From sequence record PQ615101: a DNA stretch of 64,000 nt. One strand, written 5' to 3'. The first letter of the stretch is position 1, and each line of letters opens with the position of its first letter. This DNA comes from Shigella phage SP21535. The position numbers and the translations under genes were made by a program. The notes beneath the pieces are model-generated. The model did not search any database. It saw only the letters and a list, made by a program, of their open reading frames with translations, and had not been told where the DNA came from. Shown here in pieces: positions 32,186 to 49,232 of this stretch.

Positions 32186-33916
32186 TTATAAACCTACGTC
32201 TATACGGCTACCATCAATTGTGTATTGACCAGATGAAATAGAACTCATAGATGCCATTTTTTCTGTCCAATCACCACCAACGTCCCAATCAACTGTCCCA
32301 GCAACTTTCCAAGAAAGATTTCCATTTACTGTATTAGTCTGGTTTCCTTCAACTAAAGTGGTAGCATCCCCTTTAACTGTAATGTCAGCATTACCTTCAA
32401 CTACAATAGTAACATTACCTTTAACTAGGATAGTTCCATTACCTTCAACTGTCTTAGTTTCATCGCCACGTACAAATATTGTATTGCTTCCATCTATTTG
32501 GTGGAGACGATTATCCATGTTGTAATAAATTTCTGACCCACCGACGTTAGTCTTTTTATCGCCAGCTACCAAAAAATTACCATCAGCATTTGTTATATCA
32601 TACAAATTATCAACAGTTTTTCTTGTTCTTCTTCCTGACGGTGATACTTCCTCATATGTTCCAGTCGGATGAACTAATCTGTATCGTTCTTGTCCCGGGG
32701 TATCGTCAAATTCCTGAATATGACCGCTTTCAGTTTCCATTGTGTGAACATACGGATATTCACCTTTATATGAAGAAACAGGTTCTTTAAATAAAATTCT
32801 CGAATCATTCGGAATAGGAGGGTCAGCTGGATCAGAAGACTTTGCTACAGCAGCAGCCATTGCTGACAAAGACCTAGCCGGTGTTTTCACTTCAATACCG
32901 TATGATTCCAAATTACCGGTAAGAATAATCATGGTAACACGGGATGCACGGCCTTTTGTTTGTTGATACCACAATGAATCACGACCAGCTTTATATGCTT
33001 TTTCCCAATCTCCGGCTAACATAGCAGTTAACATTGTGTTAAATTTAGCTACACCGCCAACACCCATTTGGAATGCCATATTTTCTAATGCCATTTGACG
33101 AGAACGATTAACTGCCTGCCAAACTGGGCCAACTTTAGAATGTGATTTAATGTCACGTTGCATATCAGCTAAATCACGTTCAAATAAAGTTACCGCTTCT
33201 TCCATTGTAATAGAACCTGGATTTCCGGTAATTTCACGACCAACTTGTTTTGATAAAACTTTATTAATTTGGGCCATATCACGAACTGGCTGCTTCATGA
33301 TAAGATGACCAATACCAATTGTCGGATATCCTTCGGTATCCCAATAAACTTTTAGTCTTAATCCTTCATCGCGGCGAAGCATTTCAGCCATTGACATATT
33401 TGGATTATCATCAGTTGGAATCTCTGATAGTGGTCTATCATCAGGATTTATCGCAGTGTCTAAATTACTATCTTGGATAATATTAGAAGACGAATCATAT
33501 CCTACTTCTCCGCCTTGGTTTAATACGTTAGTATCATTTCCTAGACGTCTAGGATACTGTCCAGTCGGGTCAGAAAATCCTTCAAGTCTATTAGGCTTTT
33601 CGCGAACTATTCCACCATACGTGCCAAGGACAATTCCGTTAGTTTTCCATTTGTCTAAAAAATGACCATAAACTCTAGTTCCTTCTACCGGTCCAGTAAC
33701 AGAACCTCCAATTCCAGACATTGCTGCAGAAGTTATAGGTTGAATAACTGACATCCATGGTAATTTATCAGTTGGAATACCCATTACATCGCCTTGCGCT
33801 CTTTGAGGTGGATGCAGACCAACCACACGAACACGAACACGACCTAATTTTAATGGGTCCATTCTATCTTCAACAACACCAACAAACCAGTTGAGGTTAT
33901 TACTTATCATTTCCAT
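32186..33916 (-). CDS. 5: baseplate hub + tail lysozyme gp5
   Basis: 576 aa; lysozyme-like GYPTIGIGHL segment; C-terminal VxGxxxxx beta-helix repeats. Confidence 0.9.
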   Translation of the reverse strand: MEMISNNLNWFVGVVEDRMDPLKLGRVRVRVVGLHPPQRAQGDVMGIPTDKLPWMSVIQPITSAAMSGIGGSVTGPVEGTRVYGHFLDKWKTNGIVLGTYGGIVREKPNRLEGFSDPTGQYPRRLGNDTNVLNQGGEVGYDSSSNIIQDSNLDTAINPDDRPLSEIPTDDNPNMSMAEMLRRDEGLRLKVYWDTEGYPTIGIGHLIMKQPVRDMAQINKVLSKQVGREITGNPGSITMEEAVTLFERDLADMQRDIKSHSKVGPVWQAVNRSRQMALENMAFQMGVGGVAKFNTMLTAMLAGDWEKAYKAGRDSLWYQQTKGRASRVTMIILTGNLESYGIEVKTPARSLSAMAAAVAKSSDPADPPIPNDSRILFKEPVSSYKGEYPYVHTMETESGHIQEFDDTPGQERYRLVHPTGTYEEVSPSGRRTRKTVDNLYDITNADGNFLVAGDKKTNVGGSEIYYNMDNRLHQIDGSNTIFVRGDETKTVEGNGTILVKGNVTIVVEGNADITVKGDATTLVEGNQTNTVNGNLSWKVAGTVDWDVGGDWTEKMASMSSISSGQYTIDGSRIDVGL

Positions 33917-44570: not shown

Positions 44571-45055
44571 TTTTAAAAACTCGCTGGTATGATTTAGATG
44601 ATGGGGATGATGGCATTCCAGTTGATAGAGTTGACTGGAATGGCTGTTCCGAAGATATGAAAAATTTGCTGATTAGGGAGTTTAGAATGGGATATCAACC
44701 AGTTAAGCCATCTACTGCAACAGATGATAAATTCGTATGTATTCATAATGGTCGCGCTAAATTAACGAACGCTGATTGGTTCACAGATAAAATTATGATT
44801 CTGTGGTATATTATTAGTCTTCCTGTGACATCATTCGTATTTTACTTTTTTATAAAAAATCCAATGGACAGAATAGGAGATTGGATTCTTTTAACCATAC
44901 TTGTTAATATTTTTACAGCAGCAATATTATCTGGGATATGGTACACGTTCATTGAAATGCCATGGCGGCTACGCAGACAACAAAAGATTTTTGATGAAAA
45001 GAAATATACTCAAAATTTAAATAACTTTATCACTGAATGCAGGAAATTAAAATGA
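44567..45055 (+). CDS. small membrane protein (paralog family member 3)
   Basis: Hydrophobic helices then C-terminus ...FITECRKLK. Confidence 0.45.
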   Translation: MILKTRWYDLDDGDDGIPVDRVDWNGCSEDMKNLLIREFRMGYQPVKPSTATDDKFVCIHNGRAKLTNADWFTDKIMILWYIISLPVTSFVFYFFIKNPMDRIGDWILLTILVNIFTAAILSGIWYTFIEMPWRLRRQQKIFDEKKYTQNLNNFITECRKLK

Positions 45056-45492
45056 AAACACTATCAGCTGGTATTATCTTTATGACAGAAGATAAAGATT
45101 TATTCATGGGACGGGTTACTGGTTCTCGTAAGCCTGGAATGATGGCACATCGCTGGGATATCCCAAAGGGCCGCGTAGAAAATTCTGATTTAAGCGCACT
45201 AGATGCAGCACGAAGAGAATGTTTAGAAGAGACTGGTTTTAGCAATTATAATCCAGACCTTCTAGAAGACCTAGGTGTATTTAAATATTCTAGTAATAAA
45301 GACTTACAGTTATTTTATTATACGATTCCAGTAGAGCATGAGATGTTTAGAAATTGCCATTGCGAGTCTTATTTTGAAAATAAAGATGGCGTTATGATTC
45401 CAGAGATGGACGCTTTTGCTCTTATTCCTCGTACTCAGTGGCAATATGTGATGGGTCCTTCACTTTACCGAATAATGAACAACCTCTTTTAA
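45052..45492 (+). CDS. nudE: Nudix hydrolase NudE
   Basis: Nudix box GRVENSDLSALDAARRECLEETGF; ATG 45052 with AGGAAA RBS. Confidence 0.8.
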   Translation: MKTLSAGIIFMTEDKDLFMGRVTGSRKPGMMAHRWDIPKGRVENSDLSALDAARRECLEETGFSNYNPDLLEDLGVFKYSSNKDLQLFYYTIPVEHEMFRNCHCESYFENKDGVMIPEMDAFALIPRTQWQYVMGPSLYRIMNNLF

Positions 45493-46023
<531 letters not shown>

Positions 46024-46100: not shown

Positions 46101-46575
46101 ATGAAAACATATCAAGAATTTATTACTGAAGCAGCTATTAATTCTCAAAATTATTGCTGAATCTTTTACTGATCTTTTGAAATTTAAAAAAGGACAGAAA
46201 ATTACTGCTGTATTAGATGATGGTACAGAAGTTGAGATGGATGTACAGGGATATAATTATGCAGTAGATGGAAAACTGTATAATAAATCTCATGCTAAAT
46301 TTGATTCATTTGATGATTTTGTTAATACAGTTGAAGATGAAAAAACTCGTCGATCCATTGCAACTGGTGATGCTAAGGTTCTTATGGCGCATGGACATGA
46401 ACGTATTCGCGCTAAACAGAATAAAATGGGTGAAGATAATTTCGCATTAGTTGGTTATCAATCTGGTAAACAAACTTATGGTTATCAGCGTACTGCTACC
46501 ATGTATAATAAAAATGGTAAAATCGCTTTCGTGAATAGTAAAGGTTCTATTCAGTACGTTAAATCGTTCAAATAA
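46101..46575 (+). pseudogene. internal-protein-like gene interrupted by +1 frameshift at an A-run
   Basis: MKTYQEFITEA... reads 19 codons to TGA at 46158; downstream frame open to 46575; removing one A of AAAA 46147-46150 fuses them. Confidence 0.45.
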
Positions 46576-46716
46576 TATGGGAACAACCTGGACCTCATGA
46601 TTCTGTGAGGGATTCCCGCCAACCTGTAATAAGGTCGAGCCCAAGTGCGGTAATGGGTAAATACAGAAATGGACAATTCATGCGCCATGGAATGGCCCAA
46701 ATTTAGAGAGAATAAA

Positions 46717-47259
46717 ATGAGAACATTTTTAACTGGTCCTTATCTATCCCTGATGAATGCTTTTACACACCATTCTGATGCTAGAGTAGAAGAAATTTGT
46801 AATAGTGGATTTTATGTACCTGATTCGTCGCATTTATTTAAAGAATATTGTACACTTCGACTAGACGGTGGACGTCAATCCGGTAAATCAACTGCAGTAA
46901 CTAATTTTGCCGCTAATTGGTTGTATGATGGTGGAACAGTTATTGTTCTTTCTAATACTTCAGCTTACGCTAAAATTTCTGCGGGCCGCATTAAAAAAGA
47001 ATTTTCTCGTTATTCTAGCGATGATATTCGATTCCGTTTATTTACTGATTCTGTCCGTAGTTTTGTTGGTAATAGAGGTAGCAAGTTCAGAGGTTTATCG
47101 CTTTCTCGAATTTTGTATATAATCGATGAGCCTGTTAAATCTCCTGATATGGATAAAATTTACGATATTCATATTGAAACTGTGCAACACTGCTGCAATA
47201 GTAAATGCTGCATTGGTGGTATTACTCGTCCACAGTTTTTCATAATCGGAATGCAATGA
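46717..47259 (+). CDS. small P-loop NTPase
   Basis: Walker A GGRQSGKST, Walker B ILYIIDEP; ATG 46717 after GAGAGAATAAA. Confidence 0.55.
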   Translation: MRTFLTGPYLSLMNAFTHHSDARVEEICNSGFYVPDSSHLFKEYCTLRLDGGRQSGKSTAVTNFAANWLYDGGTVIVLSNTSAYAKISAGRIKKEFSRYSSDDIRFRLFTDSVRSFVGNRGSKFRGLSLSRILYIIDEPVKSPDMDKIYDIHIETVQHCCNSKCCIGGITRPQFFIIGMQ

Positions 47260-47585
47260 TGACAGACACGCAACTTTTCGAATATCTTTATTTTTCGCCA
47301 AAAACTATTAAAAATAAATTGGTGAATCATTTTGAAATTTTGGCAAATAACAACGTCTTGAGCGAATTTTATCCTAAGCAATACAAATTACAAAAAGGTG
47401 TATTTAAAGGATGTAGAGTTTTGTGTACTGCTCCTAATGCAAGGTTAATGAATAAAATTCCATATTTTACTATGGAATTTATTGATGGTCCTTTTAAAGG
47501 ACTAATCACCCAAAGTTTAATGGCATATGATTCTGAGCCATTTTTAATTAAAGAACAATCTTGGATAAATTTATTTTCTAATTGA
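47256..47585 (+). CDS. hypothetical protein
   Basis: ATG overlapping upstream stop (ATGATGA). Confidence 0.45.
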   Translation: MMTDTQLFEYLYFSPKTIKNKLVNHFEILANNNVLSEFYPKQYKLQKGVFKGCRVLCTAPNARLMNKIPYFTMEFIDGPFKGLITQSLMAYDSEPFLIKEQSWINLFSN

Positions 47586-47591
47586 GGTTAT

Positions 47592-47954
47592 ATGAAAGCA
47601 TATCAAATTCTTGAAGGCACACATAAAGGTACTATTTATTTTGAAGACGGTATTCAAGCACGAATTATTGTCTCTAAAACTTTTAAAGAGGACTCTTTTG
47701 TAGACCCAGAAATTTTCTATGGTTTGCATGCCCGTGAAATTGAAATTGAAACACAACCTACAGTTAAAATTGAAGGTGGTCAGCACCTGAACGTTAACGT
47801 TCTGCGTCGTGAAACTCTGGAAGATGCAGTTAAGCATCCGGAAAAATATCCGCAGCTGACCATCCGTGTATCCGGATACGCAGTTCGCTTTAACTCTCTG
47901 ACTCCGGAACAGCAACGCGACGTTATTGCTCGTACCTTTACTGAGAGTTTGTAA
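47592..47954 (+). CDS. GrcA/YfiD-like autonomous glycyl radical cofactor protein
   Basis: C-terminal [57 protein letters not shown] with glycyl radical motif RVSGY. Confidence 0.8.
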
Positions 47955-48175
47955 TGGCAAAGATAATTATTGAAGGTTCTGAAGATGTGCTAAATGCTTT
48001 CGCCGAGTGGTTTAGTAATTCAGGCGAACAGCAATTTAATGAAGCGTGGAACATGGGTGATATTAGTGGAATTTATCCTACGACAGAAATTTCTGTTCAA
48101 GGATATGGAATTCATGAACCTATTCGTTTAGTTGAATATGATTTGGGAACAGGTGAGGAAGTAAAATATGATTGA
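47954..48175 (+). CDS. hypothetical protein
   Basis: 73-aa ORF, start overlaps upstream stop. Confidence 0.45.
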   Translation: MAKIIIEGSEDVLNAFAEWFSNSGEQQFNEAWNMGDISGIYPTTEISVQGYGIHEPIRLVEYDLGTGEEVKYD

Positions 48176-48434
48176 AGACATTAAAGGTTATAAGCCACAT
48201 ACTGACGATAAAATCAGTAAAGTGAATGCTATCAAAGACGCTGAAGTTCGTTTAGGACTTATCTTTGATGCTTTATACGATGAATTCTGGGAAGCATTAG
48301 ATAATTGTGAAGACTGCGAATTCGCAAAGAATTATGCTGAAAGCCTCGATCAGTTAACTATTGCTAAAACGAAACTCAAAGAAGCCAGTATGTGGGCTTG
48401 TCGTGCTGTGTTCCAACCAGAGGAAAAATACTAA
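48168..48434 (+). CDS. hypothetical protein
   Basis: 88-aa ORF, start overlaps upstream stop. Confidence 0.45.
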   Translation: MIEDIKGYKPHTDDKISKVNAIKDAEVRLGLIFDALYDEFWEALDNCEDCEFAKNYAESLDQLTIAKTKLKEASMWACRAVFQPEEKY

Positions 48435-48711
48435 TGGCTCAATTAAGCGCAGGGTTTGGTTATGAGTATTATACTGCCCTCGTCGTGTATCTGTTGCTCC
48501 TAAGAAAATTCAAAGTCTTGATGACTTCCAGGAAGTAGTTCGTAACGCTTTCCAGGACTATGCACGTTATCTTAAAGAAGATTCACAGGACTGTCTCGAA
48601 GAAGATGAAATTGCTTACTATGAGCAGCGTCTTGAACAGCTCAAAAATCTACATGAGGTTCGTGCAGAAGTTTCAAAGTCTATGAATAAATTGATTAGAT
48701 TTAAAGAATAA
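48434..48711 (+). pseudogene. small gene interrupted by -1 frameshift at A-run
   Basis: ATG 48434 frame stops at 48536-48538; overlapping frame open 48466-48711; one extra A in AAAA 48505-48508 would fuse to a ~92-aa product. Confidence 0.4.
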
Positions 48712-48770: not shown

Positions 48771-49232
48771 ATGACTATCAATACAGAAGTTTTTATCCGT
48801 CGAAATAAGCTCCGTCGTCACTTTGAGTCGGAGTTTCGTCAAATTAACAATGAGATTCGTGAGGCATCAAAAGCAGCAGGGGTCTCATCGTTTCATCTAA
48901 AATATTCTCAACATCTTCTTGATCGTGCAATTCAACGGGAGATTGATGAGACATACGTTTTTGAATTATTCCATAAAATAAAAGACCATGTTTTAGAAGT
49001 TAATGAATTCCTGAGTATGCCTCCGCGTCCTGACATTGACGAGGATTTTATTGATGGGGTTGAATATCGTCCTGGACGTTTAGAAATCACAGATGGAAAT
49101 CTTTGGCTTGGATTTACAGTTTGTAAACCTAACGCGAAGTTCAAAGACCCGTCACTTCAATGTAGGATGGCAATTATCAACAGTCGTCGTTTACCAGGAA
49201 AGGCTTCTAAAGCAGTAATTAAAACTCAATGA
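48771..49232 (+). CDS. regB: endoribonuclease RegB
   Basis: 153 aa; sequence and position between vs and the vs.x genes. Confidence 0.8.
   Translation: MTINTEVFIRRNKLRRHFESEFRQINNEIREASKAAGVSSFHLKYSQHLLDRAIQREIDETYVFELFHKIKDHVLEVNEFLSMPPRPDIDEDFIDGVEYRPGRLEITDGNLWLGFTVCKPNAKFKDPSLQCRMAIINSRRLPGKASKAVIKTQ

Follow-up and report, generated by a model that had tools for sequence, protein, structure and literature searches.

A vs.8 ortholog predicted to encode a minimal P-loop ATPase, and a candidate structured RNA upstream of it, in Shigella phage SP21535

The 64,000-nucleotide (nt) stretch of DNA from Shigella phage SP21535 analyzed here (record PQ615101; the whole stretch is termed the window) carries a small open reading frame (ORF) at 46717..47259 on the + strand, and the question posed by this locus is whether that frame is a new P-loop gene in the place where T4 has denV and ipII or a known gene in altered company. 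An earlier note, made from the letters alone, had described the product as a small P-loop nucleoside triphosphatase (NTPase) and, in setting it against the T4 neighborhood, implied that it was new. We find that the ORF is very probably orthologous to T4 vs.8, an accessory gene conserved among T-even phages, and codes for a minimal, single-domain P-loop ATPase of the ASCE type. As such, it is an ordinary gene, already catalogued in T4 and uncharacterized, and holds no novelty; the only part of the locus that might be new is a neighboring RNA motif, to which we return below.

The orthology is supported by both similarity and position. Over the 180-amino-acid (aa) core, the product is 87.2% identical to T4 Vs.8 (NP_049732, T4p119), and the two share the Walker A motif, the Walker B motif, and a CCNSKCC string. 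T4 vs.8 is encoded on the same strand as vs.7 and vs.6 and directly 5' of them, as in the window, where tblastn searches with T4 proteins give the order nudE-e-[ip]-vs.8-vs.7-vs.6-vs.5-vs.4-vs.3-regB-vs.1; the placement between the e/ip region and the vs genes proposed in the earlier note is thereby borne out. This synteny is kept in other Tevenvirinae genera, with members of the family located 3' of the e/ip/denV block and directly 5' of vs.7. The same note had named the T4 comparison as the check on its reading, and on this count the implied novelty falls: T4 carries vs.8 at the same relative position, in a form that is orthologous if not literally identical.

That vs.8 is a real gene, beyond chance, follows from its match to phrog_1488 (E = 1.2e-77, aligning protein residues 3-180 with profile positions 2-177 of 177), from tblastn matches of its protein in 1,009 phage records, from the distribution of substitutions relative to T4 (14, 12, and 40 at codon positions 1, 2, and 3, respectively), and from a dN/dS of 0.19, a value indicative of purifying selection. 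The extent of the coding region needs some care, as three different lengths are on offer. The + strand frame bounded by ATG 46717 and TGA 47257-47259 yields the 180 aa stated earlier, the longest ORF option begins at ATG 46669 and gives 196 aa, and the T4 entry, annotated as a "hypothetical protein," has 219 aa. The comparative evidence favors 180 aa as the correct model, because all 20 members of alignment A1 (with identity down to 41%) keep the Met at 46717, where the distant members all start; because an AGAGA-type purine-rich ribosome-binding site (RBS) lies ~8-13 nt 5' of this start; and because independent annotators of phage SA20RB picked the same 180-aa start. The additional ~39 N-terminal aa of T4 Vs.8 are a translation of the RNA element discussed below; in the window the corresponding region is in another frame, and distant homologs lack it.

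The motifs of the protein confirm the P-loop assignment of the earlier note. The Walker A motif or P-loop, GGRQSGKST, spans residues 51-59 (46867..46893, + strand), and the Walker B motif, ILYIIDEP, spans residues 132-139 (47110..47133, + strand), with a catalytic-type Glu138 and with a strand at 132-136 in the structural model. Across the family alignment, the invariant residues comprise D50-G-G-R-Q-S-G-K57, R114, R125-G126, L133, I135-I136, E138-P139, K147, Y149, and a C-terminal F174...G178-x-Q180, while D137 is nearly invariant. The family signature GRQxGK[ST] is kept in distant members too, with a single G-to-Y exception considered below. A third feature singled out earlier, the Cys cluster CCNSKCC, is indeed present near the C terminus (residues 159-165; 47191..47211, + strand), but it is a variable, low-confidence loop and no feature of the family: in distant homologs the position is occupied by WPSMLG, FYACITKA, and the like, the cluster having been lost, and residues 162-169 of the model have a pLDDT of <50. 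The idea of a metal site at this cluster was ruled out, as alignment A1 shows no conservation there. The cluster also causes a Pfam "conotoxin" match, seen in 1 of 20 family members.

An AlphaFold2 model of Vs.8 (pLDDT 83.4, pTM 0.84) is a single domain, with two N-terminal helices followed by a five-stranded beta-alpha-beta core in which the P-loop comes after the strand at 46-49. When the model was compared with the PDB using Foldseek, all significant matches were to ASCE or RecA-like ATPase cores (E of 1e-4 to 1e-2) and none to kinases or GTPases; the cores included the SLFN11 helicase domain, DSH9, RecD, the P74-26 large terminase (TerL) ATPase, the phi29/phi28 packaging ATPases, KaiC, and UvsW. 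No solved structure was matched significantly by sequence or profile search, and NCBIfam and PADLOC scans gave only noise. A deep profile search of 1.84 billion representative proteins returned just 55 family members at the 50% identity level, nearly all of 130-185 aa, and gave no link to any characterized family. On the strength of the model and the invariant motifs, we confidently predict that Vs.8 is a P-loop NTPase of the ASCE division. As judged from these searches, its family is a narrow, phage-only one with a single core and no second domain, and it lies outside TerL, the SF1/SF2 helicases, and every other characterized ATPase family. When the longer members were inspected for domain fusions that might be informative, we observed that the extension of P0034 is a translated RNA element and that P0057 and P0063 carry an uncharacterized N-terminal region of ~100 aa.

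Three other accounts of the gene deserve consideration at this point. The absence of denV, ipII, and ipIII from the window speaks for a novel P-loop gene having replaced denV and ipII, as the earlier note implied. T4 does have ipIII-ipII-denV between e and vs.8, in agreement with what that note said of denV and ipII, and the window has a single ip4-like DUF7412 gene there, so that the upstream neighbor of vs.8 is denV in one and an ip4-like gene in the other. The note was also correct that no pyrimidine-dimer glycosylase is present: T4 DenV had no tblastn match anywhere in the window, and a Pfam search with the Vs.8 ORF gave no match to Pyr_excise, a family that T4 DenV, used as a positive control, matched at E = 3.7e-14. 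Nevertheless, in T4 vs.8 stands beside denV, the two coexisting; the 87% identity, the identical order of the downstream neighbors, and the occurrence of the gene in 1,009 records likewise oppose a replacement, to which we attach practically no credence. The window layout is common to many Tequatroviruses at 95-98% identity, e.g., IME537 and PD112 (97.9% identical). The loss of denV and ipII is ordinary plasticity of the ip/denV block, and vs.8 is no substitute for denV.

A more substantial case can be made that Vs.8 is a degenerate paralog of the large-terminase ATPase that acts in, or regulates, DNA packaging. Among 20 family members searched against Pfam, 13 match Terminase_6N (best E = 6.8e-5), alongside 19 with AAA_14 and 6 with AAA_30; the profile phrog_2 (terminase large subunit) matches the stretch that runs from Walker A to Walker B (E = 1.6e-6); terminase ATPase domains recur among the fold matches; and the RQxGK[ST] of Vs.8 resembles the Walker A motif of T4 gp17. 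Yet each of these Pfam matches is under threshold, the lid and nuclease domains are missing from a protein of 180 aa as against ~600 aa, and the neighbors of vs.8 are accessory genes (nudE, vs, regB, tk) and not those for structure and packaging; we regard such a paralogy as improbable. Still less probable, though marginally more probable than a replacement of denV, is that the protein is an endoribonuclease or a terminase, as some GenBank labels would have it: "endoribonuclease" and "terminase large subunit" are found on Vs.8 homologs and "endoribonuclease" on a Vs.7 homolog. Neither Pfam, NCBIfam, nor PADLOC gives a match to a nuclease family, and the true endoribonuclease, RegB, is encoded by a separate gene ~1.5 kb downstream. 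Mislabeled homolog records include hits H39, H61, H75, and H88 and proteins P0005, P0006, and P0077, with "terminase large subunit" in one case; these labels are probably errors of annotation transfer, from the nearby regB or from weak TerL similarity.

The constant partner of vs.8 is the gene that follows it. The vs.7 ortholog (47256..47585, + strand; 109 aa from ATG 47256) is 98% identical to T4 Vs.7 and belongs to phrog_2049, and its start overlaps the vs.8 stop in the window (caATGAtg). In each of the 42 Tevenvirinae loci whose downstream sequence was long enough, vs.8 is immediately followed by a Vs.7-family ORF; the stop-to-stop frames of the two genes overlap in 40 of these, and in the other 2 the Vs.7 frame opens ~100 nt downstream. 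By comparison, vs.6 is variable among the loci. Since vs.7 follows vs.8 so invariably, and mostly in overlapping frames, Vs.8 and Vs.7 probably work together as a two-protein unit. Homologs of Vs.7 carry the precomputed Pfam family PF26834, and its model (pLDDT 80.7, from a shallow alignment) has two helices and a small beta domain. Engineered T-even-like phages tolerate deletion of the pin-vs.7 region (PMC10869271); as vs.8 is outside the deleted region, that result is silent on whether vs.8 is essential.

Taking these features together, we propose that Vs.8 has one RecA-like alpha/beta core of five strands, in which Lys57 of Walker A and Asp137-Glu138 of Walker B would bind and hydrolyze ATP, probably in an oligomer. 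The invariant Arg114 and Arg125 are sited where packaging ATPases have arginine fingers that act in trans, and they might serve as such fingers here. The C-terminal strand ends in the conserved G-x-Q, at the place of motif III of helicases and terminases. We further suggest that Vs.8 would act jointly with the vs.7 product and that, in the infected cell, it might act on nucleic acid or on some host factor.

Several observations weigh against parts of this reading. One distant member, P0058, has a degenerate Walker A motif (GRQTYKS, the exception to the signature mentioned above). The matches of the 20 family members to characterized ATPase families are all under the curated thresholds, and the TM-scores of the Vs.8 model to solved structures are ≤0.5; for these two reasons, we infer rather than observe a terminase- or helicase-like sub-class, and the assignment of arginine fingers and the oligomeric state have the same standing. 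The structure search with Vs.7 gave no significant match, the best (E = 0.19) being a faint KOW/SH3-like resemblance, and its partnership with Vs.8 is read from gene order only. Further, literature searches found no biochemical or genetic information on Vs.8 and no relevant publication on Vs.7 and Vs.8.

The sequence immediately 5' of vs.8 presents a different picture. We identified at 46579..46696 on the + strand a conserved, apparently non-coding element with the character of a structured RNA, delineated by strong covariation, by a covariance model match, and by a break in frame relative to T4. Its GC content is 46-49%, versus ~27-37% in the flanks, and its nucleotide identity to T4 is ~96%, versus 87.7% for the vs.8 coding sequence. 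The first 32 aa of the 219-aa T4 Vs.8 match window positions 46605-46700 in a different frame, and among closely linked loci the stop-to-stop frame of vs.8 opens anywhere from 91 nt before to 111 nt after the 3' end of the core of the element. Small indels near the RBS decide whether the region is in frame with vs.8. As the frame varies while nucleotide identity stays high, the region appears to be conserved as nucleic acid and not as protein. The "extensions" in databases, such as "...QPVIRSS..." in T4 and "...PPVIRSV..." in P0034, are translations of the RNA core (CCT GTA ATA AGG TC), and the comparison indicates that the T4 annotation of a 219-aa Vs.8 over-extends through the RNA, which many gene callers likewise render as an N-terminal part of Vs.8.

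The element is widespread in phages. A 49-nt core query matched 1,084 phage records, covering many Tevenvirinae genera, Vequintavirinae, and Vibrio and Pseudomonas phages; the matched sequence was almost always unannotated. Other versions of the core were found in Klebsiella phage KpCHEMY26, Vibrio phages of ~60 kb and ~130 kb, contigs of ~360 kb, and many metagenomic contigs; a pattern scan for the core had no match in any of 185,579 cellular genomes. Eight loci from a looser pattern search were chance matches inside coding sequence and were discarded. In the window, a covariance model finds one copy (46612-46664; 67.7 bits, E = 1e-22), the next best match being at 14 bits. In searches of Rfam 15 at E values up to 10, no family overlapped the three-way-junction core of the window, rV5-like, or KpCHEMY26-like versions, and only chance matches of the snoRNA type were returned; at gathering thresholds, a scan of 12 diverse loci had tRNAs and group I introns as its sole matches, all in other parts of the loci, and ARAGORN predicted no tRNA or tmRNA at the element. 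A terminator was ruled out for the element, which has no promoter-like site inside it either. Literature searches by sequence string (0 matches) and by topic found no description of this RNA.

In terms of architecture, we propose that the RNA has a 5' domain, a core forming a three-way junction, and a 3' hairpin, all on the + strand. The 5' domain is of a T4 type (46579..46617), with helix P1 formed by GGGAA (46579-46583) and TTCCC (46613-46617) and enclosing hairpin P2 (CCTCAT at 46593-46598 with GTGAGG at 46605-46610). Relatives show compensatory double changes in this domain (GGGAG/CTCCC for L024, CCTTA/TAAGG for L090), and a T.G wobble in the window fits an RNA of the + strand only. The core (46618..46659; alignment A2) is closed by helix Pc, which covaries freely, pairing 46618-46621 with 46654 and 46656-46658 and leaving G 46655 bulged. 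Within it, hairpin P3 (ACCT at 46622-46625 and AGGT at 46632-46635, with loop GTAATA; consensus ACCU-RUAANA-AGGU) is followed by a linker, C-G-A in the window and C-R-A in the consensus, by the mini-hairpin P4 (GC at 46639-46640 and GC at 46647-46648; consensus G[C/U]-loop-[G/A]C), and by the junction strand GGTAA (GGUAA in RNA) at 46649-46653. To our knowledge, the junction sequences C-R-A and GGUAA and the loop RUAANA are not those of any known class. The 3' hairpin, GCCA-TGGAA-TGGC (46684..46696, with 46684-46687 pairing with 46693-46696), lies ~20 nt before the vs.8 start, and its pairing is kept in the variants GCCA.../TGGC and GGCA.../TGCC, the latter in phage PM2.

The proposed junction was assessed in alignment A2, in which 67 distinct sequences could readily be aligned; 19 of its 53 columns are invariant. 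Pair 8-46 is CG in 43, GC in 13, and AU in 10 sequences, with 1 unpaired; pair 9-45 is CG in 50, UA in 10, GC in 4, AU in 2, and GU in 1, with none unpaired; pair 10-43 is AU in 37, UA in 18, UG in 7, and CG in 5, with none unpaired; and pair 29-36 is CG in 49 and UA in 15, with 3 unpaired. Overall, 89% of cells are paired, a figure that drops to 28-40% on sliding the partners by 1-3 columns, and the observed covariation score was reached by 0 of 500 shuffles; the junction helices had been spotted by eye and were tested on the same sequences that gave the structure. Hairpin P3 is invariant partly through the search patterns that required it, and no covariation evidence comes from it. The G.U pairs occur in only one orientation, and the direction of the transcript is therefore the same as that of the genes. 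Folding of the single sequence was insignificant (z = 0.44), and RNAalifold recovered only the invariant hairpin of the core.

Some distant versions are more elaborate. Those of rV5-like phages have an extra motif, UAGAGGGCUUGAnAGUGC (L002, ~2440-2470; L026, ~70-100 and ~185-215), once 5' of the core and, in the L026 type, again 3' of it, which suggests a larger, modular RNA in these phages. Common to the versions from KpCHEMY26-like phages, Pseudomonas phage PsgM04F, and jumbo phages (L053, L003, L050, and L109) are the conserved blocks GAAAGCAAA and CCGnGGUUAGUAG and an AAGCGG within the loop of a hairpin. An outer helix, GUUGUGA/UCACAAC, is present as well, and CGGA/UCCG (CGGU/GCCG or CGGG/UCCG in variants) might form a pseudoknot; in these versions the RNA extends over ~150 nt in all.

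The surroundings of the RNA differ between phage groups, and this bears on what it might do. In Tevenvirinae loci it is always 5' of vs.8 on the same strand, at a distance of <~110 nt or, in some, of ~400-460 nt; Klebsiella phage EI has an ip gene in that gap. This position and the preservation of the order RNA-vs.8-vs.7 across genera would be expected if Vs.8, Vs.7, and the RNA formed a ribonucleoprotein or processing module, with the ATPase loading on the RNA, remodeling it, or being regulated by it, or if the RNA regulated translation of vs.8-vs.7 in cis; the faint KOW/SH3-like resemblance of Vs.7 points the same way. But rV5-like, Vibrio, Klebsiella, and jumbo phages have the same core without a Vs.8-family or Walker-A ORF in its vicinity, a finding that led us to reject a link to Vs.8-like ATPases outside Tevenvirinae. 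Moreover, a consensus sigma-70-like promoter sequence follows the RNA in rV5-like phages and an intrinsic terminator follows it in L039 and L048, and the linkage with vs.8 could be synteny inherited inside one subfamily. We consider such a module or cis-regulation unlikely, if less so than a terminase paralogy of Vs.8. Outside Tevenvirinae, the RNA usually lies within or beside clusters of tRNA genes: nearly all loci with enough flank have same-strand tRNA genes ~40 nt to 1.2 kb away, and in L050, L104, L109, and L082 the core begins ~40-50 nt past a tRNA 3' end. Given these tRNAs, the promoter, and the terminator, the context favors a self-standing RNA or processing element over a leader dedicated to vs.8.

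There is in our estimate an even chance that 46579-46696 represents an undescribed class of phage structured RNA, self-standing and functional, which perhaps forms a module with vs.8-vs.7 in T-even phages. It may be a ribozyme or processing signal, a decoy that binds a ligand or protein, or a tRNA-related factor, and in T-even phages it may also be a regulator or partner of vs.8-vs.7. Vs.8 is one of many conserved T-even genes of unassigned role and alone is of small importance; together, the corrected gene model, the invariant vs.8-vs.7 pair, and the structural class allow a targeted experiment. The RNA, for its part, is better conserved than the adjoining protein gene, shows compensatory changes, and is common to unrelated virulent phage families, while being unannotated or mistranslated in about a thousand phage records, the T4 reference genome included. 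If functional, it would represent a novel phage RNA of very wide distribution, possibly connected with tRNA biology. The element also accounts for a recurrent annotation artifact, the "PVIRS" N-terminal extensions on Vs.8 entries.

As for the remaining genes of the block, tblastn with T4 proteins places nudE at 45037-45492, e at 45529-46023, vs.6/GrcA at 47592-47954, and regB at 48771-49232. The ip4-like gene for an internal virion protein (46101..46575, + strand), at the site of T4 ipIII-ipII-denV, is frameshifted: a capsid-targeting N terminus, MKTYQEFITEA, is encoded from 46101 and meets a stop after 19 codons, and the body follows in another frame from 46177 (Pfam DUF7412 match at 46177-46575, E = 2e-82). 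The gene is intact in phage IME537 (157 aa), and the copy in the window is either a pseudogene or the product of a sequencing error. The vs.5 gene (47954-48175, + strand) codes for 73 aa in the window versus 58 aa in T4, and since the T4 version matches the window in two frames, it is the T4 reference copy that looks frameshifted. Located 3' of vs.5 is vs.4, with the Pfam Acb2/Tad1 hairpin domain. The vs.3 gene (48392-48711, + strand) looks frameshifted relative to T4, with Vs.3 residues 1-15 matching 48434-48478 and residues 15-92 matching 48475-48708 in a different frame; RefSeq names vs.3 of IME537 a "putative pyrimidine dimer DNA glycosylase," a label that Pfam does not support. A second match to the lysozyme e, at 43% identity, is found at 32900-33397 on the - strand, and we take it to be, most likely, the lysozyme domain of the baseplate protein gp5.

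Finally, both parts of the locus can be set beside known systems. Vs.8 shares the ASCE fold with the large terminase and packaging ATPases (the gp17 type, Terminase_6N, P74-26 TerL, and phi29 gp16), and Vs.8 and the large terminases alike have Arg-Gln before the Gly-Lys-Ser/Thr, a Glu after Walker B, and arginines between the two Walker motifs. It differs from them in that the window protein scores 15.1 bits against the Terminase_6N cut-off of 22 and falls outside that family; in that it has neither the lid subdomain nor the C-terminal RNase H-like nuclease of TerL, ending at residue 180 after the post-Walker-B strand; and in being one third of the size, in another genomic context. The best Foldseek matches are to domain 1 (1A) of SF1/SF2 helicases such as RecD and UvsW, which has the same order of strand, P-loop, helix, strand, DE, and a terminal strand with a motif III-like end; these helicases need two tandem RecA-like domains, whereas the Vs.8 model has one and aligns with a TM-score of ≤0.5. 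Closer in size, and the nearest matches among viral models apart from orthologs, are small stand-alone P-loop proteins of 145-170 aa from other large phages, with a Vs.8-like fold, represented by BFVD models from Proteus phage phiP4-3, Vibrio phage JSF10, Aeromonas phage Aes012, Ralstonia phage RSL1, PhiPA3, Phabio, and others (query-normalized TM-scores of 0.49-0.65). Their identity to Vs.8 is 12-23%, and since none has a known function, none can be transferred to Vs.8.

For the RNA, the stable T4 RNAs rnaC and rnaD of the tRNA cluster offer a parallel in lying beside tRNA genes on the same strand, but they are unrelated to it, as there is no second copy in the window. A likeness is also seen to the HDV-like "theta" ribozymes of phages, which are adjacent to tRNAs: in both cases the element is phage specific and has same-strand tRNA neighbors. 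While no Rfam family, whether hammerhead, HDV-like, or other, matches the RNA, it resembles the hammerhead-type three-way-junction ribozymes in general form, both being compact junctions with many invariant unpaired nucleotides.

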